Sequence record: DRR723986_10642
Strand: one strand, 5' to 3'
DNA: 41,207 nt
The notes beneath the pieces are model-generated. The model was not told the DNA's origin. It was given only the letters and a program-made list of their open reading frames with translations, and searched no databases. The stretch's first letter is position 1. Each line of letters begins with the position of its first letter. Shown piece by piece: positions 4,986-31,045 of the stretch. The position numbers and the translations under genes are program-made.

Positions 4986-5375
4986 ATGCGTCATCGTCAT
5001 AGCGGCCGTCAACTGAACCGCAATAGCTCGCATCGCAAAGCGATGTTTCGCAATATGACGGCTTCATTGGTAGAGCACGAATTGATTAAAACGACTCTGC
5101 CTAAAGCCAAGGAACTTCGCCGTCACGCGGAGCCACTGATTACTCTCGCAAAAACAGATAGTGTTGCAAACCGCCGTTTGGCCTTTGCGCGTCTGCGTAG
5201 CGACGAGGCAGTGGGTAAGTTGTTCAACGAGCTTGGCCCGCGTTACGCGGCTCGCCCAGGCGGTTACATTCGCATTATGAAGTGTGGTCTGCGTACTGGC
5301 GACAAAGCTCCTATGGCTTACGTCGAGCTAGTTGATCGCCCAGTTGCGGATGAGATCGAAGACGACGAAGAGTAA
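4986..5375 (+). CDS. rplQ: 50S ribosomal protein L17
   Basis: [43 protein letters not shown]. Confidence 0.99.
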
Positions 5376-5394
5376 GCTCTTCGCTGTTTCGACA

Positions 5395-5431
5395 GCATAA
5401 AAAAAGCCGGCTATGCCGGCTTTTTTTATGC
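5395..5431. terminator. Bidirectional rho-independent terminator between rplQ and uvrA
   Basis: GCATAAAAAAAGCCGG-CTATG-CCGGCTTTTTTTATGC: inverted repeat with A- and T-tracts, between convergent genes. Confidence 0.9.
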
Positions 5432-5457
5432 CTGTTGATTAGTAATAGCTTGCCGTA

Positions 5458-8283: not shown

Positions 8284-8436
8284 TACAAACCCCGATAAAA
8301 CAAACCCAACATTATACGGGGCGGAATCAAGGCGGCGCAAAGGCCAACTGGTTTTTTAGGGGGCGGCAAACTGGTAGACTACTGGCCGTTACTTCATTGA
8401 TCACCGCTCGGGAATTTTCCGCACTTGAACTCCTCC

Positions 8437-9786: not shown

Positions 9787-9864
9787 TGACGGGTTCCGGC
9801 AGAATCCGGTATAGTGGTGACTGTCATTTGGCAGGCCGCAGACAGTAATAATAGGAGAGTGCGC

Positions 9865-10392
9865 ATGGCGCGAGGTATCAACAAAGTTATCTTGGTGGGG
9901 AATCTTGGCCAAGACCCAGAGACTCGATATATGCCTTCTGGGGGAGCCGTGACAAATGTCACCATCGCGACCAGTGAGACGTGGAAGGACAAGCAAACTG
10001 GCCAGCCGCAAGAGCGTACAGAATGGCACCGGGTGGTGTTCTTCAATCGGCTGGCTGAAATCGCGGGTGAGTATTTGAAAAAAGGCTCAAAGGTCTACGT
10101 TGAGGGATCTCTGCGCACTCGCAAATGGCAGGATCAAAGTGGCCAAGACCGTTACACCACCGAGATTGTTGCTGCTGAAATGCAAATGCTCGACAGCCGT
10201 AGCGGTGGTGGCATGTCTGGTGGTTATGGCGACGATGGCTACTCCCAAGCGCAGGCGCCTCAGCAGCGTCGCCAAGCAGCACCTGCTCCATCAGCACCGC
10301 AGCGCCAAGCCCCTCCGCAACAGCAGGCGCCCGCCCAGCAAAACGCTCCTGCTCCTGGTTTTGACGACTTTGATGACGATATTCCGTTCTAA
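9865..10392 (+). CDS. ssb: Single-stranded DNA-binding protein
   Basis: [29 protein letters not shown]-rich linker, C-terminal DDDIPF; SD AGGAG before ATG 9865. Confidence 0.98.
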
Positions 10393-10397
10393 AAAAT
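10384..10397 (+). repeat. attL candidate (imperfect direct repeat covering the last ssb codons)
   Basis: CCGTTCTAAAAAAT, an 11/14 match to 19138-19151. Confidence 0.75.
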
Positions 10398-10409
10398 ACC
10401 ATTGATTTT

Positions 10410-10524
10410 AATGTAAAGAATATTCATGTTAGCCCCGTAATTAGGGGCTTCCTTGATTTTTGCAGTGTAAAATATTTCTTGCAGGTCTCATGGTTCTCGG
10501 CTACCTTTATAAAATGTAAAGAAT
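10410..10524 (+). repeat. Left-end 12-bp direct repeats (candidate recombinase-binding sites)
   Basis: AATGTAAAGAAT at 10410-10421 and 10513-10524; degenerate TGTAAAATAT near 10466. Confidence 0.6.
10431..10461 (+). terminator. Possible island-supplied terminator downstream of ssb
   Basis: AGCCCC-GTAATTA-GGGGCT hairpin followed by TCCTTGATTTTT (interrupted T-tract). Confidence 0.4.
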
Positions 10525-10533
10525 GGTGCCTGT

Positions 10534-11778
10534 ATGACCGGCTTAGTGACCAAGCATATTGTCAGTGCAACTGGGGAGAGGCAAAAGCTTCTTGTGGACG
10601 GCTGTTCTGGTATTCCGCTGTTTTATCCCAACCTGTACATAACCTCTCAAATCCGTGGTAGCGCAAAATCTGTAGCCACCATCCAAAGTTTCATTACGTC
10701 AATGAAAGTCCTTCACTCTTGGTCGGCGGAGTATTCGGTCGATATTGAAGGGCGCTGGAGAAGAGCCGAATGGCTGAGAATCTGGGAAGTTGATTCCTTA
10801 AGAGATTTTTGTTCTTTAGCATTGCGGCAGGCGTTGGCTCTACAAGGGAAAGTCGTAAATATAAAGCAAGGCCGCCCTGTCGCTGCAAATGTGAATTCGC
10901 CAACGAAGTATGTTCGTATGACTTTTATTGCAGATTATCTGCGTTGGCTCGCTGAAGTGCTTAATACGGAGCCCGGTGAGGGGCGGAAAATTGAAATAGA
11001 CGAGATGTATAAAAGCATCAAGTCACATCGGCCTAAGAAAAAAGGGAGGTCGGATGCCTCTCGAGAAGATAAAGGGCTTGACCCAGGATTGTTGCAGGAA
11101 GTCATGGAGGCCTCTAAGCCTGGACATGAGCGCAATCCTTATCACGGTTACTCTCTTCAGGTGCGAAATGCAGCGATTATGGCTTTGTTGCATTTTCTTG
11201 GTATACGAAGGGGGGAGCTCCTTAATCTGAGAGTTGATGATATAGACTTTATTGCCAATGAACTCCGAGTCGTCAGGCGGGCCGATAGCTCTATAGACAG
11301 TCGGATATATCAGCCGTTGGTAAAAACAGAAGAACGCATACTGCCGATAAGTAACAGGTTGGCTGAAATATTGAGCGAATATGTAACAGAGCTCCGTTCA
11401 GCATTTCCTCGAGCCAGAAAACACCCGTATTTGTTTGTGACACATAAGTCAGGCCCATATCAAGGGGAGCCTCTATCTAACAGTGGTTTTGGTAAGTTGA
11501 TGTCGGCTATGCAGGGCGTCGCGGAGGAATTCTCGCTCGTCCACGCGCATGCGTTCAGGCATAGCTGGAACTACCGCTTTTCAAAGGCTTTGGATGAAGC
11601 TGGTGATGCTCATGGCCCAGAGCGAGAAGAGCAAATGAGGTCGTACCTCATGGGTTGGAAAGAAACTTCAGGTACGGCGGCTACCTATAACAGACGGCAT
11701 ATAAAGGAAAAAGCCAAAGAAGCGATCTTGGTATATCAGCGTGGTATCGGGCGATCAGGAGTGGCTTCTGATGAATAG
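10534..11778 (+). CDS. Tyrosine recombinase/integrase, GinA-like
   Basis: Catalytic set: GIRRGELLNL (Arg), VKT (Lys), HAFRH (His-x-x-Arg), MGW, AATYN (Tyr). Confidence 0.9.
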   Translation: MTGLVTKHIVSATGERQKLLVDGCSGIPLFYPNLYITSQIRGSAKSVATIQSFITSMKVLHSWSAEYSVDIEGRWRRAEWLRIWEVDSLRDFCSLALRQALALQGKVVNIKQGRPVAANVNSPTKYVRMTFIADYLRWLAEVLNTEPGEGRKIEIDEMYKSIKSHRPKKKGRSDASREDKGLDPGLLQEVMEASKPGHERNPYHGYSLQVRNAAIMALLHFLGIRRGELLNLRVDDIDFIANELRVVRRADSSIDSRIYQPLVKTEERILPISNRLAEILSEYVTELRSAFPRARKHPYLFVTHKSGPYQGEPLSNSGFGKLMSAMQGVAEEFSLVHAHAFRHSWNYRFSKALDEAGDAHGPEREEQMRSYLMGWKETSGTAATYNRRHIKEKAKEAILVYQRGIGRSGVASDE

Positions 11779-13315
11779 TTCTACAGGGTTCAAGGTAAGC
11801 TATAAGAAAAAGTTATTCATCTCCCGGGATAATAGAGCATTTAATATAGACGATGACTCCTGGAGATTAAATAAGAATGTTGTAGTTGCCGTTAAATGGA
11901 TGTCGAGATTGGCTCCAATGGTTGAGGCTTCCTTAAAGAGTGTGCTGGCGCGCAGTGCGGAGGAGTACGCGGCGGAAACGGTAAGGGGACTCAACGATGA
12001 AACTAGGCGGTACTTCAACATCACGGGAGATAGCGAGTTTCTTGTTGACTCACTCATTTCGTATCGATCAGTCTTGTCTCGCGATGAGGAGCAAAAGCTA
12101 GCCACAATAAGGATGCTGGTGAGAAATTGGTCTGACTGGGGGTACCCGGGTATTTCTCATGACGTTATGAAACTGCTAGATGGATGGCGCCTGAGGGGGA
12201 TGGAGAAAGGAAAGGCGATAAAAAGGCTGGATCCAAAAGAGGGGCCTTTAACAGAGATCGAGATGAGTGCCCTGACTGATGCAATGTTGCAGGCCTATAT
12301 TTCTGGTCAGATAAGCCTTTCGGCTTACGCACTATCGGCAGTTCTTGTCTATACAGGTCGCAGACCAATACAAATTACAAGCCTGAAGATTAAGGATATT
12401 TGTTCACGAAAAGAGGGTGAGGTTACCGAATACTGGATAAATTTCCCAAGAGCTAAGCAGAGATTCTCGAAGTGGCGAACGGAGTTTAATGCCTACCCAA
12501 TAACAGAAGATCTCTGGAATCTGTTAAGCCTGCACGCAAGTAAAATATCGGAAAAAGCCGCGGAACTTGTTGGCGGGGAGCTAACGGGTCAGGCAGTACA
12601 AGAGCTGCCTCTATTTCCAGACTTTGATGCAGTAAGAGAGTGTAACGATACCAGCGAATTGTTGGCTGCATCCCTTGGTGATGAACTTCATTCTGAGCGA
12701 GATTTGTGCAATGAAGTGATGAGGAGGCTGGAGAATCAGCTTGATGTCTATTCGGAGCGAACAGGAAAGAAGCTGAATCTATCCACTCGGCGGTTTAGGT
12801 ACACTCTGGGGAGCAATATCGCTCGCGAGGGGAAAGGTGAGCTAATCATCGCGGAAGCGTTAGATCATTCCGACACGCAGAATGTGGGGGTTTATGTGAA
12901 AAATCTCCCTGATGTGGTGGAGCGCATCGATCGGGCGGTGGCTCTACAGCTAGCGCCATTGGCACAGGCTTTCCAGGGTGTATTGATACAGTCGGAAGCT
13001 GAGGCGGAGCGCGGTGGCGACTTAAGTAGTCGCGTTGGCAATGCTGAAGTAAATGTCGGTAATTGCGGGAGTTATGGCTTTTGTGGCGCTATGGCGCCGA
13101 TTGCGTGTTACACATGTAGGCACTTTCAGCCCTGGGTGGATGGGCCGCATGAGATCATTCTGGATGAGTTAATCGACAAGCGCGATCAAGTGTTACGTAA
13201 TACCCGTGATATTAAAGTTGCTTCCTCCAATGACCGTTTGATACTGGCCGTCGCTCAGGTTATTCAACGCTGTAATGCGAAAAAAGCCGAACGACTGCAG
13301 TTGGAGGAATGCTGA
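11771..13315 (+). CDS. Tyrosine recombinase-like protein with C-terminal Cys cluster, GinB-like
   Basis: YTGRRPIQI (Arg), RRFRYT (box II with His replaced by Arg), LDHSD...GVYV (Tyr), then GNCGSYGFC...ACYTC; ATG 11771 with AGGAG SD overlaps the upstream stop. Confidence 0.85.
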   Translation: MNSSTGFKVSYKKKLFISRDNRAFNIDDDSWRLNKNVVVAVKWMSRLAPMVEASLKSVLARSAEEYAAETVRGLNDETRRYFNITGDSEFLVDSLISYRSVLSRDEEQKLATIRMLVRNWSDWGYPGISHDVMKLLDGWRLRGMEKGKAIKRLDPKEGPLTEIEMSALTDAMLQAYISGQISLSAYALSAVLVYTGRRPIQITSLKIKDICSRKEGEVTEYWINFPRAKQRFSKWRTEFNAYPITEDLWNLLSLHASKISEKAAELVGGELTGQAVQELPLFPDFDAVRECNDTSELLAASLGDELHSERDLCNEVMRRLENQLDVYSERTGKKLNLSTRRFRYTLGSNIAREGKGELIIAEALDHSDTQNVGVYVKNLPDVVERIDRAVALQLAPLAQAFQGVLIQSEAEAERGGDLSSRVGNAEVNVGNCGSYGFCGAMAPIACYTCRHFQPWVDGPHEIILDELIDKRDQVLRNTRDIKVASSNDRLILAVAQVIQRCNAKKAERLQLEEC

Positions 13316-15339
13316 TGGGCGAGATCTTCCAGTTTATACCTAAGGCTGAATTGGATGCTAAGGCGAATGTTGATGAATTCATCCGCCGTTGTCGCCATGA
13401 TTTAACAGTCTTTGGCAATACCCTTGATTGGAATAGCTGGAATTGGAAAGGGGTGGTCAACTACACGAAAATCGGTGCACCAAGCCGAGGTATAAAACCT
13501 GAACATTTACTTGATGAAGAAATTCAGAGCTTTGCGAAAGCCTATATTCGTTACCAGCAAGGGCATAATCCGACAAAAAATATTCAAGAGATTAAAGCCA
13601 TTCGGTGTATCGAGCCTGCCTTAATCAAGGTAAAGGGGGTGGCAGATATTACTAAGGTCGAGGTGTGTGTTCTTGATGAGGCTGCAGTAGTTGCTCGAGA
13701 GCAATATGGCAGTTCTGGTTATCACGCGGGTGCGCATCTGGAGAAGCTGTCTAAGTTTTTGTCAGATAATGGGATGATCAAATCTCCCGTAATTTGGAAA
13801 AACCCTATCCCTCGATATGAGGACAGAAACCGTACAGGTGAAAAAGGCAGAGCCCATAGGGAGAAGAGGCTACCTAAAGACTATCAGTTGGAATACATGG
13901 CTGAAATGTTCGCAAATGATCTGCAGGAGCCGCGTGATCGATTTACGACTTCAATGTTCGCGCTAGGTATGTGCGCGCCGGGCCGTGTGTCCGAATTTCA
14001 GGATTTGTCGGTCGACTGCGTTCATGAGGAAATTGATAGAAAAGGGGTAAATAGGCTCGGACTGCGTTTTTATGCGGGAAAGGGTTTCGGCGCAGATATA
14101 AAGTGGGTTAGTTCACCGTTTGTTTCTATTGCGAGAGAAGCGATATCAAGGTTAATGGAACTTTCGGCTGAGGGACGAAAACTCGCCAGTTGGCTGGAAG
14201 CCCAGCCGGATAAATTTTATCGCCATGAACTGTGTCCTGATGTTGGAGAGGATGAGCCGTTATCTGCTGAGCAGATTTGTCAGGCTATGGGTTGGGTCGT
14301 CCGTGACGGAAAGTCTGCGATGTCGGTGGCTTTTAATCCGAGCAAAAAGAAAATATTGGCTATTCGACAAGCGAAGGGCGCTATTACTCTAAGGGACTTG
14401 AATAAGATCGTTCATGCGGAGCTTCCTGCAGGCTGGCCTTGGAAGAATAGAGAGCGCGGTGTGAGGTATTCGGACGCTCTGTTGTGCCTCAGAATGAATG
14501 AGCTCCACGCTAATAGGGGGGTGTCACCAGTACAGCTATGGACGCCAGATAACGCGACGTTTACATATGATCTAGGGCCAAGAAAAGGTGCGAACCAAAA
14601 GAGCATCTGGCAGCGTCATGGCTACAAAAATCCCGATGGTTCAGAAATAAAGTTTACCTCGCACCAGCTGAGGCACCTCCTGAATACAGTAGCGCAACGT
14701 GGTGATCTCGGTCAGCTGGATATTGCGATGTGGTCTGGTCGTGCCAATATCCACCAAAATCGCACGTACAATCATATGTCTGAGTATGAGGTGATAGATA
14801 AGGTCAAAAGGGTGCCTGGCTTGGTGGCGATGATGGGGCCTCTGGAAAAGGTTAAAAGTCATATGCCTGTAACCCTCGAGGACTTGGATGCTATTGGTGA
14901 GGGTATTGCTCATGTGACTGAATATGGGTTTTGTGTGCATGATTTTTCGATGGTGCCGTGCCAGAAGCATCGAGACTGCATCAACTGCACCGAACAGGTA
15001 TGTGTGAAGGGAGATGAGGAAAAGCTGGCTCGCCTCAAGATGCAGCGGGATATGACGCAAGCGCAGTTGGATAAAGCGGAGTCTGGGGTGGCTGAGGGAT
15101 TTTATGGGGCAGGACGATGGTACGAACATCAAAAGCAGACGCTGGCGCGAGCAATTGAGCTGATTCAGCTCCTTGAGTCGGATGATATTGAGGATGGCGC
15201 GATAATTCGGTTGCGCAATGACAACGAGTTTAGCCCATTGAGGCGTGAAATAGCTGCAAAGGAATCACAGCCTAGATTAGGGGCTGGCAATGCAAATAAT
15301 GAGGAAATGAGAGCTTTATTAGGAGGCGATATTGGCTAA
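13315..15339 (+). CDS. Large tyrosine recombinase-like protein with C-terminal Cys cluster, GinC-like
   Basis: APGRVSE (Arg), HQLRH, SGR...RTYNH (Tyr), then GFCVHDFSMVPCQKHRDCINC; TGATG overlap with upstream gene and GGAGGA SD. Confidence 0.85.
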   Translation: MGEIFQFIPKAELDAKANVDEFIRRCRHDLTVFGNTLDWNSWNWKGVVNYTKIGAPSRGIKPEHLLDEEIQSFAKAYIRYQQGHNPTKNIQEIKAIRCIEPALIKVKGVADITKVEVCVLDEAAVVAREQYGSSGYHAGAHLEKLSKFLSDNGMIKSPVIWKNPIPRYEDRNRTGEKGRAHREKRLPKDYQLEYMAEMFANDLQEPRDRFTTSMFALGMCAPGRVSEFQDLSVDCVHEEIDRKGVNRLGLRFYAGKGFGADIKWVSSPFVSIAREAISRLMELSAEGRKLASWLEAQPDKFYRHELCPDVGEDEPLSAEQICQAMGWVVRDGKSAMSVAFNPSKKKILAIRQAKGAITLRDLNKIVHAELPAGWPWKNRERGVRYSDALLCLRMNELHANRGVSPVQLWTPDNATFTYDLGPRKGANQKSIWQRHGYKNPDGSEIKFTSHQLRHLLNTVAQRGDLGQLDIAMWSGRANIHQNRTYNHMSEYEVIDKVKRVPGLVAMMGPLEKVKSHMPVTLEDLDAIGEGIAHVTEYGFCVHDFSMVPCQKHRDCINCTEQVCVKGDEEKLARLKMQRDMTQAQLDKAESGVAEGFYGAGRWYEHQKQTLARAIELIQLLESDDIEDGAIIRLRNDNEFSPLRREIAAKESQPRLGAGNANNEEMRALLGGDIG

Positions 15340-15736
15340 GCACCTGACTGAGCTGGATATAGAAAAAATTCTTGGTGTTATAGACGGTTGGCAAGGTAAG
15401 CTGACGTGGGACAGGCTATGTGATGCGGTCATAGGGCAAATAGGTAAGCGTCCAACTCGACAGTCGTTAAATGCGAACAAGCGGATCAAGCAGGCTTTTC
15501 TTGATAAGAAAACTAGGTTAAAGGGCGACTTTCAAGAGACAAAGACCCCGCCATCCTTGGCAATCGCAGGTCAGCGAATAAAACGCTTGGAAGAAGAGAA
15601 TCTTCGACTGAAAGCTGAGAATGCCAGGCTTCTTGAGCAGTATATCGTTTGGCAGTACAACGCTTATCGGCATGGTTTAACTGAAGAGCAGCTCAACTCT
15701 GAGCTGCCAGTTATCGATAGAGAAGCTAGTCGATAG
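15332..15736 (+). CDS. Small helical/coiled-coil accessory protein, GinD-like (TnpC-like)
   Basis: TTG start with AGGAGG SD overlapping the upstream stop; N-terminal helical segment (LTWDRLCDAV...PTRQSL) and heptad RIKRLEEENLRLKAENARLLEQ. Confidence 0.75.
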   Translation: MAKHLTELDIEKILGVIDGWQGKLTWDRLCDAVIGQIGKRPTRQSLNANKRIKQAFLDKKTRLKGDFQETKTPPSLAIAGQRIKRLEEENLRLKAENARLLEQYIVWQYNAYRHGLTEEQLNSELPVIDREASR

Positions 15737-15749
15737 TTGTTACTGTGTT

Positions 15750-16826
15750 TTACTCATTTATTACAATGATCGGGTGGGCTCTATCATTCGGCGAGCCAGG
15801 AAAGCTTGAGTAATAAACGGAGTTTTTGTCTGTTGTGTTTGGCCTGTCGGGGCCGTAGACGCTTTCCATGCTGAAAAATCTTTGGCCCGTTTCAGAGGTT
15901 ATAAATCCACTGTAGTTATTTTGAATAAGGTTGTTTACAGTGCCGACTTCGCGCTCTACAGATAAATAGCATAGCTGCTCGCATTGCTTTGCTATCTCTG
16001 TAGCGTTTGGGCGTGATTTGTCGTCGTATTCCAAGCAGCTTTCTATGACGGTTTGAAGCTCTTTCGACAATGGTGAGAGCTGGGGGTTGTTTGTCATGAA
16101 TGCCGGCCATTCTTTCCTGTTTCTGTTCTTTACATTTACAGCGGCTTCGAGATAAACGCCAAATGGGAACTCACCCGTCAAAAGTTTGAACATCATCGCG
16201 CCTAGTGACCATATGTCTACACTTTGTCCAACCTGTTCGCCTGAGTTTCGGAACATCATCTCAGGGGCCATAAAAGGAAGGGCTCCTTTTATTGTGCCAG
16301 AGTTTGACTGAGTTATTTCCCCAGCCTCTGCGGCTTCGTCAAATACCTGCTCAGTCAGGGTTGCGATTCCGAAGTCTGTGATTTTTAGCTCATTGATATT
16401 TACACCGGAAGTTGTCATCACATTACTTGGTTTTAGATCGCGGTGTATGACTCCTGCACGATGTGATGCTTCAACACCTTTAGCTAAGAGATGGAGTATT
16501 TGTGCTCCTAGATGGGGGTCAAATATGCCCAATTTCTGCTGTTTTTCATCTAGAGTTTCCCCTTCTATAAATTCTTCAATGAGGAATTCGGCTGCTTCCG
16601 TGTCAAGGTAGTCTAGGGTTTTAGCTATGTTGTGGTGGTTTACCTTGGCGGCCACGATAGCGCTACTTCGGAACCTTTTGGCAGATTGTTCGTTTTGAGG
16701 TGTTTTGAGGGCGACGTCAATTTCCAGGAGGGTGTCTAATGCGAGATATACATCCTGCATACCACCTCGGCCTATGTGTCCTTTGACTATGTATCTTCCG
16801 TCTATTTCTGTTCCGGGCTTTATCAT
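15750..16826 (-). CDS. Hanks-type Ser/Thr protein kinase with C-terminal cold-shock/OB-like domain
   Basis: GRGGMQDVY, VALKT, HRDLKPSN, DFG, FMAPE, DIWSLG; tail REVGTV...YSGFI...RFFS; start ATG 16826 in an ATGA overlap with the upstream kinase. Confidence 0.9.
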   Translation of the reverse strand: MIKPGTEIDGRYIVKGHIGRGGMQDVYLALDTLLEIDVALKTPQNEQSAKRFRSSAIVAAKVNHHNIAKTLDYLDTEAAEFLIEEFIEGETLDEKQQKLGIFDPHLGAQILHLLAKGVEASHRAGVIHRDLKPSNVMTTSGVNINELKITDFGIATLTEQVFDEAAEAGEITQSNSGTIKGALPFMAPEMMFRNSGEQVGQSVDIWSLGAMMFKLLTGEFPFGVYLEAAVNVKNRNRKEWPAFMTNNPQLSPLSKELQTVIESCLEYDDKSRPNATEIAKQCEQLCYLSVEREVGTVNNLIQNNYSGFITSETGQRFFSMESVYGPDRPNTTDKNSVYYSSFPGSPNDRAHPIIVINE

Positions 16827-17896
16827 GCTGTGACCTCCGGGTTTGAAACATCGAATGTCATAAATTTGCGGTGCTTCGCGTTGCCGAAAGCAATTACACA
16901 GCATGCGGGTAATTCGCTGCCCGCAGTGGCCAGTTTGTTGTTAATTTTCACCGTTCCTGATAGCTGGCCGACATTGAAAGAGGTGCCGTCGTAGTGGATT
17001 TGCATAGTTCCTAGAGTGCCGCATGTAACATTAACGGAAGGCGTTTGAGCATCGATCTCATGAGTATTTCCGTTCATCACTAATAAGGCGCGGTGTTGGC
17101 CGGCTACGATGTGGCGTCTAATCAGCGCCTCCACATCGCGCATTTCTGGTCTTCGCTCGGGGTTACTGTCGATGCATCGTATTATGATTTCTATGACTTC
17201 TTTTGGTGCGCCAGATAGGAGCGACTCGATGCTATCTGCTGGGGCTGGAACTGGGGGTCTGTCGAACAACTCTTGGGGGAGTTTGTTGCTGATTAGATTT
17301 AGTGCAGTTATGCCAAATGCGTATACGTCCACAGCTCTGTCGAAGGCTATATTAGCTTCGCGCTTCCACAGCTCTGGAGCCATAAATATCGGTGTTCCAA
17401 TAACATTTACGGTTGAGGCTTCCGGTCCTTCGTGTCTTGCCAATCCGAAATCTAGAATCTTAATTACATTGTCAGAGTTCACCAGTAGATTATTGGGTTT
17501 GATATCTCGGTGAATAACGCCTGCTGCGTGTATTTCGCTCAGCCCGCATGCGATCTGCCATAGACTCCTAAGGTAATGCTCGTCTGAAGAGTATGACCCT
17601 GGAGTCAGTTGATTGCCCCTGATGCACTCTAGTACAAGAGCCTTTCTGCTTTCGCCATTCTCATCTATATTTACGACATCGAAAAGCTGGACGACATGTT
17701 TTGAGCGAACCTTGATTAGGGCCTTTTGTTCGTCGAGTAGCCTTCTTTGATCTTCACCTGGTTTCAGTAACTTAAGGACTACATTTCGTTGTAAGTGATT
17801 ATCAATGCAGTGAATGATGTCGCCCATCCCTCCTTGTTCTGATTGACCTGTCGGGCTGTACCGTTCAGGGAATATCACGATCGGACTCCTTTCCAC
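16823..17896 (-). CDS. Hanks-type Ser/Thr protein kinase with C-terminal beta-rich (FHA-like) domain
   Basis: QGGMGDI, VVLKL, alphaC Glu in LLDEQKAL, HRDIKPNN, DFG, GTPIFMAPE, DVYAFG; GTG start overlaps the phosphatase TAG (TAGTG). Confidence 0.9.
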   Translation of the reverse strand: MERSPIVIFPERYSPTGQSEQGGMGDIIHCIDNHLQRNVVLKLLKPGEDQRRLLDEQKALIKVRSKHVVQLFDVVNIDENGESRKALVLECIRGNQLTPGSYSSDEHYLRSLWQIACGLSEIHAAGVIHRDIKPNNLLVNSDNVIKILDFGLARHEGPEASTVNVIGTPIFMAPELWKREANIAFDRAVDVYAFGITALNLISNKLPQELFDRPPVPAPADSIESLLSGAPKEVIEIIIRCIDSNPERRPEMRDVEALIRRHIVAGQHRALLVMNGNTHEIDAQTPSVNVTCGTLGTMQIHYDGTSFNVGQLSGTVKINNKLATAGSELPACCVIAFGNAKHRKFMTFDVSNPEVTA

Positions 17897-18921
17897 TATT
17901 TGTCTTTGGGGGTGGGCATAACGTCTATTTCAAATTGTTCATGCTTAGAGCTCTTTGTATTTTCCTTCGTTGCCTTTCGTGGTCGTTTTTTTTGTGGTGG
18001 CTTCAGGGGCTCTAATTTGGGATCTGGTGGCGTGGTGCTCAGCTTGTTTGGGAGCGCAGCTCCACCCTTGGTGTCCTGTTTTGTCCAAGTGATTATGAGT
18101 GACCCGAAAGGGTCATGTATTTCGATGCCTGGTGAAGGCTCTTGCAGTGCTTCTGTCAATTTATTTATCGATACATAAGCGGCTGTCGCATTGTCGGGGC
18201 CTCCTCTCCATTTTGCATATGCTAGCAATTGTTGGACAGATGTTGCCGGTGTTGATGCATTTAGGGCAATGTCGCTGAGAACAGCCTGATCAATAAAATG
18301 AACGCCGTCCGATGTAAGTATCAAGCTCTCTAGGTTGTCTGAGACAACGCGGGTGTGGGCGTCTAATCCCTCGCCCATCCCAATAAATTGTATGAGTGCG
18401 CGCCCGTGCCCTCCAACAGCCTCCTCGAGTGAGTCATCCGTCGTTAGTCGTAGCAGCTTTGTTTGAGCTTTAGGCTGAGTCGCATAAATGCGGCTGTCGC
18501 CAACGTTAACTGTATATGTTCTGTTTTTATCAGTAAAAATGACAGCTGATAGTGTGGCTCCGCCGGAGCCTTGGCAGAAGTCGAAAACCGTTGAGTTGGC
18601 AGTATTTGCAGCAAGTTTGAGTCTTTCTTCTGGGGGGCGGTTCCTGTGACTTATTAGACAGTTGAAAAATGACCCAATCGCCAACGCGGCGCACTCTTCT
18701 CCATTATTCATTCCCCCCATGCCGTCTGTTAACGCAATTGCCGTAAATCTTGGGAAGTTTGGTGAATTAGAGTCTACTTTCAGCATCGCAATGCGATCCT
18801 GGTTTTCCTTTCTGATTAGCCCGATGTCGGTGCCTAATGCAGTAGAATGGTTCTCAAGCAAGGAGTCTCCGGATTCTGGTACGGCCCTGAGTAACCAGCG
18901 CGATATTTTATCTGTTAACAT
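17896..18921 (-). CDS. PP2C/PPM-family Ser/Thr phosphatase
   Basis: TDIGLIRKENQD, DGMGG, GATL, NVGDSRIY, LTSDGV, GPDNAT; Pro/Lys-rich C-terminal tail; likely start ATG 18921 (341 aa). Confidence 0.92.
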   Translation of the reverse strand: MLTDKISRWLLRAVPESGDSLLENHSTALGTDIGLIRKENQDRIAMLKVDSNSPNFPRFTAIALTDGMGGMNNGEECAALAIGSFFNCLISHRNRPPEERLKLAANTANSTVFDFCQGSGGATLSAVIFTDKNRTYTVNVGDSRIYATQPKAQTKLLRLTTDDSLEEAVGGHGRALIQFIGMGEGLDAHTRVVSDNLESLILTSDGVHFIDQAVLSDIALNASTPATSVQQLLAYAKWRGGPDNATAAYVSINKLTEALQEPSPGIEIHDPFGSLIITWTKQDTKGGAALPNKLSTTPPDPKLEPLKPPQKKRPRKATKENTKSSKHEQFEIDVMPTPKDK

Positions 18922-18999
18922 AACTGTCCAGTCTTGTTGGTTGCAGGTCGTTAGCCAAAGTCCATGGTCGTCTGTTGGTGACTCTCGGAATGTTGGAAG

Positions 19000-19028
19000 A
19001 TAGTATGTTGTGGTTATAGAACTGTAAA
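19000..19028 (-). promoter_or_regulatory. Candidate sigma70 promoter of the phosphatase-kinase-kinase operon
   Basis: Minus strand TTTACA (19028-19023), 17 bp, TACTAT (19005-19000), about 80 bp upstream of ATG 18921. Confidence 0.6.
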
Positions 19029-19052
19029 GTTTGGCGGGCGAAAAATAGATTG

Positions 19053-19064
19053 CTTTACATTTTA
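19053..19064 (-). repeat. Right-end inverted copy of the left-end motif
   Basis: CTTTACATTTTA is the exact reverse complement of TAAAATGTAAAG at 10510-10521. Confidence 0.55.
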
Positions 19065-19137
19065 ATGTATTTTCGTACCGTTTTGAGGGATAAGTCATTA
19101 ATTGTATTAATGTTTTTGTTTTGTTAGGTAGTTGCAA

Positions 19138-19151
19138 CCATTCTAAGAGAT
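19138..19151 (+). repeat. attR candidate (imperfect direct repeat)
   Basis: CCATTCTAAGAGAT; sits exactly at the switch from AT-rich island end to GC-rich host DNA. Confidence 0.75.
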
Positions 19152-19225
19152 GTCTTCGCAGTTAGTGAGCGCCGATGGGACGGCGGCGGGATTAACGTCC
19201 CAGAAAAGTGTTGTGCAATGTCTAG

Positions 19226-20086
19226 ATGAAGGCGGCAGTGGGCGAAACGGTGAGCGTGTTACTACTCTGTGAAGACTCCGCGTTAGCGGCGGCCCTGCAA
19301 GCGCAGCTGAACTCCCGGGGCCGGGAATTGCTGCAACTAAAGCCCTCTGAATTATTGGCGCAACCGCACTTGGCCGACGGTGCGATTCTCGTTAACGCCC
19401 TTTTAACACCGGGCGAACCCGTCACCGACGCCGTCGTTGATATTCAGGCGGAGCTAATAAGTGCTGTAGGCCCGAAACTGCGGTGTTATTTGGGGCTGAG
19501 TGATGCCCGGGTTGTCGCGGAGTTGGATCGCGAAGAGCCGGTGGCAGAAAATGCCACCCCAGCCCCTCAAGGTCAGGATGCTGTCCGTCTGGCGGCAATG
19601 GAAGAGCAGCTGCTATCTGCGCCATTGCAGGCGCTTATCCTGCGCACGGGGCCACTTATTGCGACCGACGGTGATAATTTACTGTCTGCCTTTATCAAGG
19701 CGCTTAAAGCGGGCCAAGCGCTTGGTCTTGATGATTCTCAGCAGAGTGCTCCGACGCCGGTTGGTGACCTTGCCCGGGTGTTGTCGGCAATGATTGACCA
19801 GCTTTCCTGTGGTGCGCTGTGCCGGGGTATCTATCACTATCAAAGCAGCGGTGCCACTAGCGCCTATGCTTTTGCCGAAGTGGCCTACGCTCATGCCGGG
19901 CAATATCTGGCGACTCCCCCCGATATTTCAATTGATGGCGATGGCTGGGGGTGGGTGATGGATTCGCGGGTACTCCGCTGTGAGCGTTTATTACGTAATT
20001 TCGGCATTAAGCAATTAGCGTGGCGATCCTGGTTGCCCAAAATGATTAAAACCCTTTGTGAGGATGATTGCGATGAGCGCCTCTGA
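19226..20086 (+). CDS. RmlD-like sugar-nucleotide-binding domain protein (degenerate SDR fold)
   Basis: RmlD-like C-terminal half (LILRTG, APTPVGDLARV, GIYHY...SAYAFA, FGIKQLAWRSWL); canonical GxxGxxG and YxxxK absent. Confidence 0.7.
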   Translation: MKAAVGETVSVLLLCEDSALAAALQAQLNSRGRELLQLKPSELLAQPHLADGAILVNALLTPGEPVTDAVVDIQAELISAVGPKLRCYLGLSDARVVAELDREEPVAENATPAPQGQDAVRLAAMEEQLLSAPLQALILRTGPLIATDGDNLLSAFIKALKAGQALGLDDSQQSAPTPVGDLARVLSAMIDQLSCGALCRGIYHYQSSGATSAYAFAEVAYAHAGQYLATPPDISIDGDGWGWVMDSRVLRCERLLRNFGIKQLAWRSWLPKMIKTLCEDDCDERL

Positions 20087-20594
20087 CGCGTTTTCAGCTC
20101 TGTCGATCGCGGTGCTGACCGTATCGGATACTCGAGATGAGGCTTCTGATAGCTCTGGGCACTACCTATGTACTGCTCTGCAAGAGGCCGGTCACCGGCA
20201 GGCGGATAAGCAGATAGTGAAAGACGATATTTATCAAATTCGCGCTGCACTATCCGCTTGGATCGCCGATGAAAACATTGACGCTGTGCTGGTCACTGGT
20301 GGCACCGGATTTTCTGGCCGGGACTCCACGCCAGAGGCGGTGTCGGTGCTTTTTGACAAGCACATTGAAGGCTTTGGCGAGGTCTTTCGCGCCGTGTCTT
20401 ACGAAGAAATTGGCTCGTCGACCATCCAGTCGCGAGCCCTTGCCGGCTTTGCTAATAATACCGTGATATTTTGCATGCCAGGTTCTACGGGGGCATGCCG
20501 AACCGCGTGGACGCGGCTTATCGCGGAGCAGCTCGATAGCCGTCATCGCCCCTGCAATTTTGTGGGTGTGTTAAATACTCGCAGAGGTCACTAA
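20073..20594 (+). CDS. moaB: Molybdenum cofactor biosynthesis protein MoaB
   Basis: IAVLTVSDTR, TGGTGFSGRDSTPEA, GFGEVFR, IQSRA, MPGSTGAC, HRPCNF. Confidence 0.93.
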   Translation: MSASDAFSALSIAVLTVSDTRDEASDSSGHYLCTALQEAGHRQADKQIVKDDIYQIRAALSAWIADENIDAVLVTGGTGFSGRDSTPEAVSVLFDKHIEGFGEVFRAVSYEEIGSSTIQSRALAGFANNTVIFCMPGSTGACRTAWTRLIAEQLDSRHRPCNFVGVLNTRRGH

Positions 20595-20596
20595 TA

Positions 20597-21787
20597 ATGG
20601 CGCTGCGCCCGGTGGCGGAAGTGCAGGCTGAGTTACTGGCAGATGCGAGCCTGTGTGGGGATGAGCGCTGTGACCTGAATGCCGCATTTGGGCGCATTCT
20701 TCGGGAGGATATTGTCGCGGCAACAGATGTGCCGCCGGCGGCCAATAGCGCGATGGACGGCTATGCGTTGCGGGTCGCTGATCTTGCCGAAGGGCGGGCC
20801 CTGCCTATAAGCCAGCGTATAGCGGCGGGCCATGCCCCCGATGCCTTGCTGCCGGGAACCGCGGCGCGAATCTTTACCGGTGCGGTTATCCCGCCGGGGG
20901 CAGACTGTGTTGTTGCTCAGGAGGATTGCCGGCAATCCGACGAGGGCGTTGAGATTGCGATAACGCCAGTATCTGGCCAGCATATTCGCCCGCGTGGCCA
21001 GGACATCGCTAAGGGGACTGTTGTTGTAGCACGCGGTCGCAAGCTAGGCGCCGCGGACCTCGGCTTGTTGGCCTCCGTTGGGGTGCCGGCCTGTCGTGTT
21101 GCCAAACGCTTAAAAGTTGCCTTGATGTCGACCGGGGATGAATTGCGAGAGCCCGGCGAGGCGCTCGGCATCGCGCAAATTTACAATTCCAATCGGCCGA
21201 TGCTGGCTGCGCTGGTTTCAGCAATGGGCGGTGAGCTTATCGACCTGGGAATTGTCCCCGATACGGCAGAGGCGACTGCGGGGGCCTTGTCTCAAGCAGC
21301 TGAGTTGGCCGATGTGGTAATAAGCAGTGGTGGTGTCTCTGTCGGTGAGGAGGATCATGTTAAGGCGCAGATAGAGCGCTTGGGTGAGCTCAAGGTGTGG
21401 AAACTGGCGATTAAGCCGGGTAAGCCCCTGGCCTACGGCCGAATTGCAGGCGTGCCGTTTTTTGGTTTGCCGGGCAACCCGGTGTCGAGTTTTGTCACCT
21501 TCTGCCTGCTCGTCAGGCCGTATTTGTTGGCCATGCAAGGCATCAGCGACCCGATGCCCGACGTCGTTCAGGCGACGGTGGACTTCGAATGGCTAAAGCC
21601 AGGTAGTCGGCAGGAGTATCTGCGTGTGCGCCTTAAGGGGGGCGTGCTGAGTTTGCATCCGCAGCAAAGCTCCGGGGCGCTAAGTTCAGTGGCGTGGGCG
21701 AATGCATTGGCAATTGTGCCGCCGGGTACGATCTTTGGGCGTGGAGAGGTTATCGATTGCCTTTCTTTCGCTGAGTTGGGTGCCTAG
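20597..21787 (+). CDS. moeA: Molybdopterin molybdenumtransferase MoeA
   Basis: NSAMDGYA, RIFTGA, STGDEL, SSGGVSVGEED, KPGKP, GLPGNPVS. Confidence 0.96.
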   Translation: MALRPVAEVQAELLADASLCGDERCDLNAAFGRILREDIVAATDVPPAANSAMDGYALRVADLAEGRALPISQRIAAGHAPDALLPGTAARIFTGAVIPPGADCVVAQEDCRQSDEGVEIAITPVSGQHIRPRGQDIAKGTVVVARGRKLGAADLGLLASVGVPACRVAKRLKVALMSTGDELREPGEALGIAQIYNSNRPMLAALVSAMGGELIDLGIVPDTAEATAGALSQAAELADVVISSGGVSVGEEDHVKAQIERLGELKVWKLAIKPGKPLAYGRIAGVPFFGLPGNPVSSFVTFCLLVRPYLLAMQGISDPMPDVVQATVDFEWLKPGSRQEYLRVRLKGGVLSLHPQQSSGALSSVAWANALAIVPPGTIFGRGEVIDCLSFAELGA

Positions 21788-21863: not shown

Positions 21864-23087
21864 TTAGTCGTTAACTCGACTAAACACCAGGCTCGCGTTA
21901 GTGCCACCAAAGCCAAAGCTGTTAGACATAATGGTATTGAGCGTCACGTTTTCGCGCTTTTCTGTCGCAATTGGAATGCCGGCGGCTTCCGAATCCAGCT
22001 CCTCGATATTGGCGGAGGCGGCAATGAAGTTATTTTGCATCATCAGTAGCGAGAAGATGGCTTCTTGAACGCCGGTAGCCCCCAGAGAGTGCCCGGCCAG
22101 TGACTTGGTTGAACCGATAACGGGGATGGGGTGTTCACCATAGGCCTGTTTAATGGCCTTGAGCTCCTGCATATCGCCGGCCGGCGTCGAGGTGCCATGT
22201 GAGTTGATGTAGTCGACCTCACTGCTGACATTTTGCAGGGCCAGGCGCATGCATCGCGCCGCGCCTTCGCCACTCGGGGCAACCATGTCATAGCCGTCGG
22301 AGGTGGCGCCGTAGCCGACTAATTCGCCATAAATTTTTGCGCCGCGCGCTTTGGCGTGCTCGAGTTCTTCCAGAACGATCATGCCGGCACCGCCAGCAAT
22401 AACAAAGCCGTCGCGGTTAGCGTCGTAGGGTCGGGAGGCCTGCTGGGGGGTGTCGTTGTACTTCGTAGACAGCGCGCCCATGGCATCAAACAGGCAGCTC
22501 AGCGACCAGTGTTCTTCTTCGCCGCCGCCGGCAAAAACAACATCTTGTTTGCCCAGCTGAATCAGTTCAGCAGCGTTGCCAATGCAGTGTGCGCTGGTGG
22601 CGCAAGCTGAAGAGATAGAGTAGTTCACACCTTTTATTTTAAAGGGGGTGGCCAGACAGGCAGATACGGTGCTGCCCATGGTTTGGGTAACCCGGTAGGG
22701 CCCAATACGTTTTACGCCGCGCTCGCGCAGTGTATCGGCAGACTCAATGAGGTTGGCCGAAGAGGCACCACCAGAGCCGGCAATAATGCCAGTACGCTCG
22801 TTGTCGATATCCTTGTCTTCAAGTCCGGAGTCGGCAATCGCTTCTTGCATGGCGATGTAAGCATAGGCTGCCGCGTCGCCCATGAAGCGCAGTTGCTTGC
22901 GATCAATGTGGGCTTTTAAATCCAGGTCTTTAATGGAGCCTGAAATATGGCTGCGAAAGCCCATTTCTTTGTAGGTGTCGTTATGTGTGATGCCGGATGC
23001 ACCATTTTGGAGCGAAGCCAAAGCTTGTTTGATGTCGTTGCCAATGCTGGAGACGATACCCATCCCCGTAACTACAACACGTTTCAT
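21864..23087 (-). CDS. fabB: Beta-ketoacyl-ACP synthase I
   Basis: [20 protein letters not shown] (catalytic Cys), [21 protein letters not shown]; downstream of fabA. Confidence 0.96.
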
Positions 23088-23152
23088 GTCTACCTCGTAG
23101 CGTATATTTGTTCTGTCAGTGAGTCTTGTTTGCCACGCTAGTGGCATTGTTA

Positions 23153-23677
23153 TTACGCGAAGCTGGCGTCGTCTTTGAACAGGCCAACCCGCAGATCTTT
23201 AGCGGTGTAGATAACTTTCCCGTCGACAGCGACCTCGCCGTCGGCGATACCCATAACCAGTTTGCGTTCAATGAGTCGCTTGAAGTTGAGTGTGTAGGTA
23301 ACGAGTTTGGTGTCGGGTAAAATTTGTCCAGTGAACTTAATTTCGCCGGCACCCAGCGCGCGGCCTTTGCCACTGTTGCCGCGCCACCCGAGGAAAAAGC
23401 CCACCAGCTGCCACATGGCATCGAGCCCCAGGCAGCCGGGCATGACCGGGTCGCCAACAAAGTGGCAGTCGAAAAACCATAGGTCGGGGTTGATATCGAG
23501 CTCGGCGATCAGTTGGCCTTTGCCGTATTCGCCACCTTCGCCGCTAATATGCGTGATGCGGTCTAACATGAGCATATTGTCGACGGGAAGGCGGGGGTTG
23601 CCCGGGCCAAAGAGCCGGCCGTGGCCGCAATCAATGAGTTCTTCTTTTGTAAAGCTATTTTTATGGGTAAGAGACAT
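23153..23677 (-). CDS. fabA: 3-hydroxydecanoyl-ACP dehydratase/isomerase
   Basis: [26 protein letters not shown]; start ATG 23677. Confidence 0.96.
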
Positions 23678-23904
23678 AAGAAAAAGACTTGCCAGTGAGA
23701 AATTTGTAGCGCGCATAGTAGCATAAGGGCCTGCTGAGCACACAAAAATGTCAACATTGGCCTGATCATTGCTGTAATAATTTGGTAAGCAGGGCAAAGT
23801 AGGCTACGCGGTGATTGCGAATCTGCTGCACTGCTGGGAAAATTCGTTCACAAGGCTCGTTACGGACTGAGCTATTTCAAAAAAACACAGGATGCACAAG
23901 TAAT

Positions 23905-24741
23905 ATGATCAGGAAATGTCTCTTTCCGGTTGCCGGCTACGGTACCCGCTTCCTACCCGCGACGAAGTCGATGCCCAAAGAAATGCTGCCGATCGTCAAC
24001 AAGCCACTGGTTCAGTACGGTGTTGAGGAGTCTATTGAGGCGGGGCTTAAGCAAATTGCTCTGGTAACGGGGCGCGGTAAGCGCGCCATTGCTGATCACT
24101 TCGACATTAGTTTTGAGCTTGAAAACCAAATAGCGGGCACCAGCAAAGAGTCCTACCTGACCAGTATTCGGAAAGTGTTGAGCGAAGGCACTTTCATGAT
24201 GACGCGCCAGCGCGAAATGAAAGGCTTGGGGCACGCCATTCTTACCGGTGAAAGCCTGGTGGGCAATGAGGCCTTCGGCGTTATTCTTTCCGATGACCTG
24301 TGCGTGAATCCGGGCGAAGATGGTGTGATGGCGCAAATGGTGAAGCTGTATAACCAGTTCCGCTGTAGCATTGTCGCCATCCAGGAAGTGCCAATGGAGA
24401 ACATCGAGAAATACGGTGTTATTGCCGGCGATGATATGGGTGGTGGTCTCTACCGAGTAAAAGATATGGTTGAGAAGCCCAAGGCTGAAGACGCGCCGAG
24501 TAACCTCGCCGTTATTGGTCGCTATATTCTAACGCCCGATATTTTCGATATTTTGCGCGACACTCCTCCGGGTAAAAACGGCGAAATTCAGCTGACAGAT
24601 GCACTGATGACCCAGGCGCAAAACGGCTGCGTGCTGGCGTATAAATTCCAAGGCCGCCGATTTGACTGCGGCAGCGTGCCCGGATTTATCGAAGCGACAA
24701 ACTACGTCTACGAAAACATCTATCAAGACGGGCAGGGTTGA
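23905..24741 (+). CDS. galU: UTP-glucose-1-phosphate uridylyltransferase
   Basis: PVAGYGTRFLPATKSMPKEMLP, VEKP, GEIQLTDA, FDCGS; start ATG 23905. Confidence 0.96.
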   Translation: MIRKCLFPVAGYGTRFLPATKSMPKEMLPIVNKPLVQYGVEESIEAGLKQIALVTGRGKRAIADHFDISFELENQIAGTSKESYLTSIRKVLSEGTFMMTRQREMKGLGHAILTGESLVGNEAFGVILSDDLCVNPGEDGVMAQMVKLYNQFRCSIVAIQEVPMENIEKYGVIAGDDMGGGLYRVKDMVEKPKAEDAPSNLAVIGRYILTPDIFDILRDTPPGKNGEIQLTDALMTQAQNGCVLAYKFQGRRFDCGSVPGFIEATNYVYENIYQDGQG

Positions 24742-24744
24742 TTC

Positions 24745-26094
24745 ATGGTGCAAGAACTAAGCTGTTTTAAGGCCTACGATGTTCGCGGTCGCATCCCCGA
24801 TCAGCTCAACGAAGATATTGCCTACCGCATTGGTCGCGCCTTTGCTGAGGTGATCAAGCCAAAGAAGGTTGTCGTTGGGCACGATATTCGCCTGAGTAGT
24901 GAGGCAATAAAAGCAGCCGTTTCTAACGGCTTGCGCGATGCAGGGGTCGATGTGTACGACATCGGCCTGTGTGGAACAGAAGAAATTTACTTTGCCACGT
25001 CGCATGCAGAAATGGATGGCGGTATTGCCGTCACCGCGAGCCATAATCCCAAAGATTATAACGGCATGAAGTTCGTGCGTGAGGAGTCGAAGCCAATCAG
25101 CGGCGACACTGGCCTGTTGGATATTAAAGCCCTTGCTGAGAAGAATGAATTTTCAGCCCCGGCAGCGGTGCGTGGCCAGCTTCAGTCGCTTGATACGAGT
25201 GCGGCCTATGTCGAGCACTTGTTGAGCTACGTAGATGTATCTGCCCTCAAGCCGCTCAAAATCGTCGTCAATGCCGGTAATGGTGGCGCTGGGCGCGTGG
25301 TTGACCTGCTGGAACCGCATTTGCCGTTTGAATTTATTCGTGTTCATCACGAAGCTGATGGCAACTTCCCGAACGGCGTGCCGAACCCTCTTTTGGTGGA
25401 GAATCGTCAACCCACTATTGATGCCATTAAGGCGCACGGTGCTGATCTGGGTATTGCCTGGGACGGTGACTTTGATCGCTGTTTCTTTTTCGATGAGCGC
25501 GGCGAGTTCATCGAAGGCTATTACGTTGTGGGCTTGCTTGCCGAGACCTTCCTGCTGAATGCTCCAGGCGAAAAAGTGGTTCACGACCCGCGTTTAACCT
25601 GGAATACCGTCGACATTGTTCAGGCGCGCGGCGGCGAGGCGGTACAGAGCAAAACCGGTCATGCCTTTATTAAAGAGCGAATGCGCAAGGAAAATGCGGT
25701 TTACGGCGGTGAAATGAGTGCCCACCACTACTTCAGGGACTTTGCTTACTGCGATAGTGGCATGATTCCCTGGTTGCTGGTTACTCAGCTGATGTCGGTG
25801 AGGTCTGCGGCCTTGTCGTCGCTGGTCGAAGAGCGCGTTGCCAAGTTTCCCTGCAGTGGTGAAATTAATCGCGAGGTCGACGATGCGCGCGCCAGTATTG
25901 CTGCCATTGAAGCAAAATATGCCGAGCAGGCTAGCAGCGTTGATTATACCGACGGTCTGAGTATGGATTTTGACGGCTGGCGGTTTAATGTGCGCATGTC
26001 CAACACCGAGCCGGTTGTACGCTTGAATGTTGAGAGTGAGGCGGACATGGCGCTGATGAAGCAGAAAACAGAGGAGCTGCTAACCCAGCTATAA
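24745..26094 (+). CDS. manB: Phosphomannomutase/phosphoglucomutase (CpsG/ManB family)
   Basis: [15 protein letters not shown] (phosphoserine site), DGDFDR, GGEMSAH, RMSNTEP. Confidence 0.92.
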
Positions 26095-28985: not shown

Positions 28986-29014
28986 TTGTGTTTATTGGCT
29001 GGAGCCAGTAAAAT
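28986..29014 (+). promoter_or_regulatory. Candidate sigma70 promoter of rplU-rpmA
   Basis: TTGTGT, 17 bp, TAAAAT, followed by GC-rich discriminator TCGCGCCC. Confidence 0.6.
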
Positions 29015-29155
29015 TCGCGCCCCTGAAGCAAAACCGCCCAGCCCGGCTGAAAAGTGAGGTTGCAGCGGTGCCTGGACTTGTCCCACGGCCGGTAAAAACT
29101 GGTGGTGGCCAAACACTCAATATGCATTGCAAGCAGGCTCTTGGAGATTATGCCC

Positions 29156-29467
29156 ATGTACGCAGTTATTGAAAGCGGTGGTAAGCAGCACCGTGTAGTT
29201 GAGGGTGAAACCCTCAAGTTGGAAAAAATTGAAGTCGCCACTGGTGAAGCCATTACTTTTGATAAAGTACTGATGGTTAAGAACGGTGAAGAACTCAAAA
29301 TCGGTGCGCCCTATGTTGAGGGTGGTAAAGTGACTGCAGAGGTTATCTCTCAAGGTCGTCACGCTAAGGTGAAAATCGTTAAGTTTCGCCGCCGTAAGCA
29401 CAGCATGAAACAAGCCGGTCACCGCCAGTGGTTCACGGAAGTGAAAATCACTGGTATCAGCGGCTAA
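29156..29467 (+). CDS. rplU: 50S ribosomal protein L21
   Basis: [14 protein letters not shown]...[11 protein letters not shown]. Confidence 0.98.
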
Positions 29468-29485
29468 GAATACGAGGAGAGACTC

Positions 29486-29812: not shown

Positions 29813-31045
<1,233 letters not shown>

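Follow-up and report, generated by a model that had tools for sequence, protein, structure and literature searches.

A Predicted Kinase-Kinase-Phosphatase Operon as the Cargo of a Small GInt-Type Island at the 3' End of ssb

The DNA considered here (the window) is the whole stretch of 41,207 nucleotides of the sequence record DRR723986_10642, and the subject of this analysis is an island of 8.75 kb (window 10387-19146) that probably represents a GInt-type element, site-specific for the 3' end of ssb, whose cargo is a single operon of the kinase-kinase-phosphatase (KKP) family that would act as a toxin-antitoxin (TA) and phage defense system. The KKP family is already published and, with respect to the main text of the literature, the novelty is its carrier; in fact, GInts are not mentioned in the main text of the paper that defines KKP (PMC11341870), whose supplementary tables may list GInt-borne cases, and a full-text literature search pairing GInts with KKP, PfkA, PfpC, or prpZ gave nothing relevant.

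The Cargo Operon and the KKP Definition

The cargo consists of three minus-strand genes that converge on a recombinase operon and extend over 17896-18921, 16823-17896, and 15750-16826, in the order PP2C, kinase with an all-beta C-terminus, and kinase with a cold-shock-like C-terminus; the middle, pfkB-like kinase is named KinB and the last, pfkA-like kinase is named KinA.

17896-18921, minus strand: pfpC-like PP2C phosphatase, 341 aa, with the catalytic domain at about residues 30-251 and a Lys/Pro-rich, non-conserved tail
16823-17878, minus strand: pfkB-like Ser/Thr kinase (KinB), 351 aa, with a Hanks domain and an all-beta C-terminal domain; 357 aa if the GTG at 17896 is the start
15750-16826, minus strand: pfkA-like Ser/Thr kinase (KinA), 358 aa, with a Hanks domain and a cold-shock-like C-terminal domain that has GFI at residue 307

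These genes are 1026, 1056 (or 1074), and 1077 bp long, none of the three frames is interrupted, and the catalytic motifs are all intact, the products being 41-78% identical to widely scattered homologues. The two kinase genes share an ATGA overlap with GGAGG 8 nt upstream, and TAGTG is present at the junction between PP2C and KinB. In the same frame, another GTG lies at 17878; it has AAGGAG 7 nt before it and agrees with the start positions of the homologues. The middle gene is therefore annotated from 17878, and PP2C and KinB are probably separated by a gap of 17 nt instead of overlapping by 1 nt, which still corresponds to tight coupling. An earlier note on this DNA had described the genes as coupled through both TAGTG and ATGA overlaps: the coupling and the ATGA overlap are real, while the TAGTG overlap is probably not used.

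KKP was defined as the PfpC/PfkB/PfkA triplet (Guo et al. 2024, PMC11341870), and its clusters were searched as a PF13672/COG0631 phosphatase and two PF00069 kinases encoded on the same strand by genes of 900-1300 bp, with an FHA domain (PF00498) on PfkB and a cold-shock domain (CSD) with GFI/GFA on PfkA (PMC11341870). In the window, the genes for PP2C, kinase, and kinase are adjacent on one strand, each of them is longer than 900 and shorter than 1300 bp, the phosphatase belongs to PF13672 and retains its catalytic motifs, and both kinases combine PF00069 with GGM, HRD, and DFG; the CSD with GFI on the last kinase is recognized by profile comparison, the window protein having no direct Pfam match. 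The operon resembles the KKP of the Pf6 prophage of Pseudomonas aeruginosa in order, strand, genes of about 1 kb, the PF13672 and two PF00069 domains, GGM, HRD, and DFG in both kinases, the cold-shock-like domain with GFI on the last kinase, tight coupling, and residence on a mobile element. The KKP-type module suggested in the earlier note is, at the level of sequence, consistent with the published definition in gene order, sizes, Pfam families, kinase motifs, and CSD. More than 1200 KKP clusters have been described, more than 90% of them in prophages, and 70 of the 114 non-prophage clusters are close to mobile-element genes (PMC11341870); unlike most of them, the module of the window is carried by a GInt-type island.

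Two other known systems share part of this organization. The prpZ-prkY-prkX cluster of Salmonella Typhi, located on a P4-like phage in SPI-10 (PMC6267989, PMC11984733), likewise belongs to a horizontally acquired element and encodes a PP2C with two eukaryotic-type Ser/Thr kinases in tandem behind it, and it is probably the same cluster as the KKP module of Typhi CT18 in Guo et al. (2024); it was studied for macrophage survival, with PrkX reported as secreted, a role not to be expected in a marine host. PD-T4-6 and other single-kinase defense systems of PADLOC share the Hanks kinase domain. In particular, the PD-T4-6 models match KinA (E 1.7e-51) and KinB (E 1.3e-36) and mad6 matches as well, all as generic kinase-domain matches; unlike PD-T4-6, which is a single protein, the cargo has partner genes, and the matches span only the kinase domain with no partner kinase or phosphatase among them. 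PADLOC had been named as a check in the earlier note: it returned these kinase domains but no KKP call, the release being without a KKP model.

Phosphatase and Kinase Domains

The phosphatase scores 25.0 bits against PF13672 (cut-off 24) and matches the Stp1/IreP model of NCBIfam, NF033484, with E 5.2e-26, under the equivalog cut-off. Its alignment to the solved PP2C tPphA (5d2u, E 2.8e-9) finds the metal-site motifs NQD40, DGMGG66, SDG204, and PDN242 in place, so that the intact metal-binding motifs previously read from the letters are borne out by a known structure. The final 85 residues or so are rich in Lys and Pro, and the homologues mostly align only to about residue 246-295.

Both kinases match PF00069 (KinB E 1.5e-36, KinA E 1.6e-44) and possess GGM, the catalytic Lys, HRD, DFG, and APE. 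No evident transmembrane segment was found in either of them, the highest 19-residue Kyte-Doolittle mean being 1.05-1.17; on these grounds, the earlier description of two Hanks kinases without evident transmembrane segments is confirmed. The same description had assigned to them different C-terminal extra domains, and the models agree with it, predicting a 5-strand barrel in KinA and an all-beta domain of about 8 strands in KinB.

The AlphaFold model of KinA has an overall pLDDT of 68.6 and a tail at 74-88 with five strands. When a profile of 31 KinA tails was compared by hhalign with 22 cold-shock proteins, the match reached 84.9% probability (E 6.4e-6, 60 of 67 columns) and the GFI of KinA fell on the GFGFI motif of the cold-shock profile, while in a control the KinA tail profile against FHA domains gave 0.3%. 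PF00313 is matched directly by 2 of the 31 C-termini of the KinA family. These comparisons support a cold-shock-like nature of the C-terminal domain of KinA. The KinB model is of higher confidence (pLDDT 91, pTM 0.87) and ends in an all-beta tail. The isolated C-terminal pieces of both kinases matched neither FHA nor CSD in Pfam at E<=10, and the ESM Atlas gave no usable match for the same parts; when PDB and BFVD were searched by Foldseek with the entire KinB model, only kinase domains were retrieved, a result that is uninformative for the C-terminal domain.

Borders and Insertion Site of the Island

The island is absent from the nearest genome, G001, where window 6900-10392 and 19138-20646 are aligned at 98% identity with nothing of the island between the two matches and position 10392 is joined directly to 19138. 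The empty site of G001 is CCGTTCTAAGAGATG, the left junction of the island is CCGTTCTAA, and the right junction is CCATTCTAA; the repeats that bound the island are, in other words, imperfect direct repeats. A marine metagenome contig, about 95% identical to the flanks and belonging to a different, related genotype, fuses 10386 to 19141 and skips 8754 bp, with 6 letters at the joint that fit both sides; the core of the island is TTCTAA, the 6 nt common to attL and attR. The insertion point is the stop codon of ssb and the encoded Ssb protein is unaltered. The GC content is 45-48% within the island and 56-57% outside, and a low-GC block of 46-49% covers about 10.0-19.0 kb between flanks of about 56%.

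10384-10392, no strand: attL core CCGTTCTAA, overlapping the final codons and the stop of ssb (9814-10392)
10393-10533, plus strand: non-coding left end, in which AATGTAAAGAAT is directly repeated at 10410-10421 and 10513-10524
18922-19137, no strand: AT-rich 3' end of the island, 216 bp, 37.5% GC
19138-19146, no strand: attR core CCATTCTAA, placed from the empty site of G001 and the metagenome joint

Between 15736, where the fourth recombinase gene ends, and 19137 there are only the three cargo genes and the 216-bp stretch, and no Rfam match was found in this interval. The mobile island and the sole cargo postulated in the earlier note are both upheld by the empty site of G001 and by the metagenome contig, and within the borders of the island just three genes lie outside the recombinase operon; the element can be described more exactly as GInt-type.

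The left end may contain recombinase-binding sites and the promoter region of the gin operon. The heptamer TGTAAAG is present there in two direct copies, each inside the 12-nt repeat AATGTAAAGAAT, and forms an inverted pair at the right end (19020-19029 and 19053-19062); the whole window contains 9 copies versus 4.1 expected, a number reached in 2 of 100 shuffles, and these copies are possible arm sites of the recombinases. A promoter-like site for the cargo operon lies at 19028->19000 on the minus strand, in the AT-rich 3' end; the scan for promoters and terminators was not above chance, with 5 promoter-like sites versus 4.4 expected.

In the marine metagenome run X1, searched with window 9000-20000, the empty-site contig has a depth of 14.8 and fragments identical to the island have a depth of 2-4, contig depth not being a share of cells. 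This run may be the source of the window itself, and the low-depth fragments identical to the island therefore give no independent support. One DNA metagenome run contained 0.31 of the sampled words of the locus.

The Recombinase Operon and the GInt-Type Carrier

The other half of the island is a plus-strand operon of four genes that overlap or abut.

10534-11778, plus strand: ginA-like tyrosine recombinase, 414 aa, PF00589 with E 2.1e-13
11741-13315, plus strand: ginB-like site-specific integrase, 524 aa, NCBIfam NF041502 with 594.7 bits versus a cut-off of 350
13309-15339, plus strand: ginC-like large protein of the recombinase module, 676 aa, with a 94% identical copy in genome G026
15332-15736, plus strand: ginD-like small protein, 134 aa, always the fourth gene, 89% identical in G026 and 38% in genome G006

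The first protein also has NCBIfam matches of the XerC/XerD type, every one of them below cut-off, and the second scores 25.7 bits against PF00589, under the cut-off. The ginC-like protein has no match in Pfam, NCBIfam, PADLOC, or PDB; the motifs GRVxE, HQxRH, and YNH, read by eye, are kept in a homologue of 33-39% identity. The ginD-like protein has no family match in Pfam, NCBIfam, or PADLOC, and its C-terminal stretch is heptad-like. Sequence searches of PDB with the second and third genes gave nothing useful, and hhalign between the third and the first gave a weak result (E 0.09).

GInts are characterized by a recombinase operon placed first, cargo right after the fourth gene, and a short AT-rich 3' end (Bardaji 2017, PMC5385486); their direct repeats are imperfect, and the end of ssb, with Ssb unchanged, is the site of 6 of the 11 gin operons analyzed as GInts (PMC5385486). 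The island of the window shares with GInts and with the SE elements (Idola et al. 2023, PMC10214605) the 5' four-gene operon, in which a small coiled-coil-type gene accompanies three recombinase-type genes, the cargo directly after the fourth gene, the AT-rich 3' end, the imperfect repeats around a 6-nt core, and the target at the end of ssb with Ssb kept. It differs from published GInts in its size, being at the small extreme with 8.75 kb and a cargo of 3.2 kb, in comparison to a cargo of 2.5-70 kb and a median GInt size of 34.9 kb (PMC5385486). A further difference regards the third protein, which by eye keeps Arg, His-x-x-Arg-His, and Tyr as catalytic candidates, as does IntB of SE, whereas GinC is described without catalytic residues; therefore, by sequence the island may be either a GInt or an SE element. 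The assignment as GInt-type is structural, made by layout and not by a sequence match to the reference GinA-D. The plasmid homologues of the third gene belong to Escherichia in 37 of 88 records and to Pseudomonas in 12 of 88, a spread that fits the published host range of GInts and is no test of GInt identity.

A survey of 40 genomes from the host's family revealed two further elements of this type, in G026 and G006, and the order of the recombinase genes is conserved in both. The element of G026 (L149, G026:C22 1-6206), which is of another genus, sits at the same end of ssb as the island of the window and encodes GinA-D-like proteins 81, 80, 94, and 89% identical, with 84% nucleotide identity. 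Behind the fourth recombinase gene, its cargo opens with the N-terminal part of a type I restriction-modification (R-M) methylase (HsdM_N E 4.9e-10; PADLOC MTase_I E 3.8e-21), and the contig includes only 340 bp of this cargo. The search for KKP kinases in G026, a genome that is only 70% complete, was negative. The same backbone therefore carries different defense-type cargo in two genera, a methylase in G026 and KKP in the window. In G006 (L148, G006:C38 about 480-6443 and beyond), a distant four-gene recombinase module of 33-38% identity directly follows ssb; downstream there are an open reading frame (ORF) of 145 aa, a 723-aa RecD-like helicase (AAA_30, UvrD_C_2, HHH_RecD2), and then small ORFs without assignment together with a transposase of the IS110 family; no right border of this element was found.

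The nature of GInt cargo bears on a narrower explanation of the module, by which it serves only for addiction, holding the GInt in the chromosome through post-segregational killing, with no antiphage role. GInts commonly carry addiction modules, R-M systems among them, which probably favor fixation (Bardaji 2017, PMC5385486), KKP behaves as a TA system (PMC11341870), and the island, a very small one, has no cargo besides the module. However, the sister GInt of G026 bears defense-type cargo, GInts are reported as defense carriers in Escherichia coli (PMC10121019), and five of five tested KKP modules gave protection from lytic phages (PMC11341870); moreover, addiction and antiphage roles are not mutually exclusive, and a purely addictive function is considered unlikely.

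Family and Distribution of the Triplet

Among 8000 candidates scored, 1698 relatives of KinA were recognized at E<=1e-20; the best 120 of these 1698 are 59-78% identical, 335-365 aa long, and distributed in Alpha-, Beta-, and Gammaproteobacteria. Species-representative genomes contain 36 loci with a KinA relative of at least 46% identity, and a triplet in the same order and orientation is present in 32 of them, the exceptions being L045, cut by a contig end, L018 and L025, with the last kinase only, and L041, where the middle gene is lost. The same triplet is borne by a Klebsiella Peduoviridae phage record, with a KinA identity of 61.5%, and a scan of IMG/VR gave only one related viral contig (L140). 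None of the four proteins of the recombinase module was matched in the 37 related loci, that is, the 36 genome loci and the Klebsiella phage record.

The KinA-like gene of L025 (10001-11065, a contig of Pantoea sp., a stink-bug symbiont) has no PP2C or KinB neighbors and an in-frame stop in its C-terminal part, and is probably a decaying orphan. Two loci show variant arrangements: L041 (9238-10648) lacks KinB, and its PP2C gene directly adjoins a KinA-like gene whose match begins only at residue 142, while in L018 (953-2017) the 950 bp upstream of the KinA-like gene contain no KinB. One stop codon is found inside the KinB-like match of L033 (8919-9983), which may be a pseudogene or a match that extends upstream of the true start.

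In the 40 genomes of the host's family, a KinA-like protein is encoded in one, G009, whose triplet (L155, G009:C6, 9963-13148; KinA identity 61%) is the only other KKP-like one. Its neighbors are an integrase with an Arm-DNA-binding domain, RadC, DUF932, a ParB_N protein, and YhcG/DUF1016, and it looks like the cargo of a distinct integrative element that lies some 95 kb away from the empty ssb site of that genome; RadC and DUF1016/YhcG are also among the gene names in the figure of KKP neighborhoods (PMC11341870). The YhcG/DUF1016 nuclease gene beside the G009 triplet looks split into two ORFs.

This sparse distribution concerns a further alternative, namely that the module is an inactive remnant or an ordinary chromosomal pair for Ser/Thr signaling together with its phosphatase. 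Housekeeping pairs of a Hanks kinase and a PP2C are in fact common, and generic kinases of 520-586 aa are present in G001, G006, and G026; against this, the module is missing from the 98% identical empty site of G001 and was detected in a single genome out of the 40 of the family, its GC differs from that of the flanks, and its three open frames retain the catalytic motifs and 41-78% identity to scattered homologues, which makes such an origin highly improbable.

Proposed Function

For the preferred reading, a KKP-family module with TA and antiphage activity, a tripartite TA system with a growth-arrest phage defense role can be proposed by homology. In characterized KKP systems, toxicity needs both kinases together, many essential host proteins are phosphorylated, and neutralization requires the catalytic motifs of the phosphatase (PMC11341870). 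By homology with them, the two kinases of the window together would most likely act as a dose-dependent toxin, phosphorylating many host proteins of replication, translation, and division and leading to growth arrest, and the co-translated PP2C would restrain them through dephosphorylation. A protein of a phage or of another invading element could block or destabilize the phosphatase, so that the kinases would be released and phage production would stop; loss of the island would cause the same release, by which the module would stabilize its carrier. Both modes of triggering have published counterparts, since the T4 protein Gp59 binds and partly inhibits the KKP phosphatase (PMC11341870) and the Pf4 replication protein RepG4 triggers KKP toxicity via degradation of the phosphatase, as reported in 2025 (PMC12328805). 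In addition, the five tested modules, all of which protected against lytic phages, came from five genera (PMC11341870), namely those of Pf6, Shewanella W3-18-1, V. tasmaniensis, E. coli 15EC039, and S. Typhi CT18.

A mainly regulatory function has also been weighed, in which the phospho-switch would tune a host nucleoid protein and, with it, the excision or expression of the island or of co-resident prophages. Prophage induction in P. aeruginosa depends on the kinase-to-phosphatase ratio, which acts via MvaU phosphorylation, by which the silencing and induction of the Pf prophages are governed (PMC11341870), and the cold-shock-like domain of the PfkA type suggests an association with nucleic acids. 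On the other hand, the role in lysogeny was shown for Pf phages only, and no prophage lies next to the module within the window, MvaU/H-NS-type targets and genome-wide prophages being outside this search; a predominantly regulatory switch seems distinctly unlikely.

Several observations weigh against the assignment to KKP and its defense role. The module, unlike more than 90% of the published clusters, is outside a prophage, and prophage-linked roles therefore may not apply. The nearest link to the characterized modules is a 357-aa P. aeruginosa protein of 64% identity, a possible PfkA; the phosphatase clears the Pfam cut-off by 1 bit only and is unmatched in PADLOC (2023), a release that contains no KKP model; and the KinA model has pLDDT <50 at the activation segment, residues 138-185. 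The middle kinase differs from PfkB in that an FHA domain is not detectable by Pfam: PF00498 was found neither in KinB of the window nor in any of 31 homologous tails. In the same direction, hhalign of the KinB tail against FHA gave a weak match (12.3% probability, E 0.0024; control 0.3%) in which the canonical FHA Ser and His positions were not matched, and the KinB C-terminus, searched as a profile against PDB, returned no FHA, the best match being the ribosomal protein uS19 (E 0.23). An FHA-like character of the all-beta domain predicted for KinB is accordingly graded as unconfirmed. Finally, the search of sequencing runs found no RNA run with the locus on record.

At a more tentative level, the GInt backbone could be a dedicated shuttle for defense or addiction cargo in marine Gammaproteobacteria, with KKP as the stabilizer of an element that is neither phage nor conjugative and as a benefit for the host, a possibility held with less than even confidence; if it is true, the published control of prophage lysogeny would generalize, so that any integrative element could exert or undergo such control. 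The island is a natural cassette of 8.75 kb with clean ends and a natural empty site, suited to asking about the stabilization of the carrier and about defense in a marine host, and it adds to the evidence that GInts move defense systems, with no new kind of mechanism.

Other stretches of lower GC occur in the window at 1-5000, 23000-25000, and 29000-30000, with 50-52% compared to the typical 55-58%.

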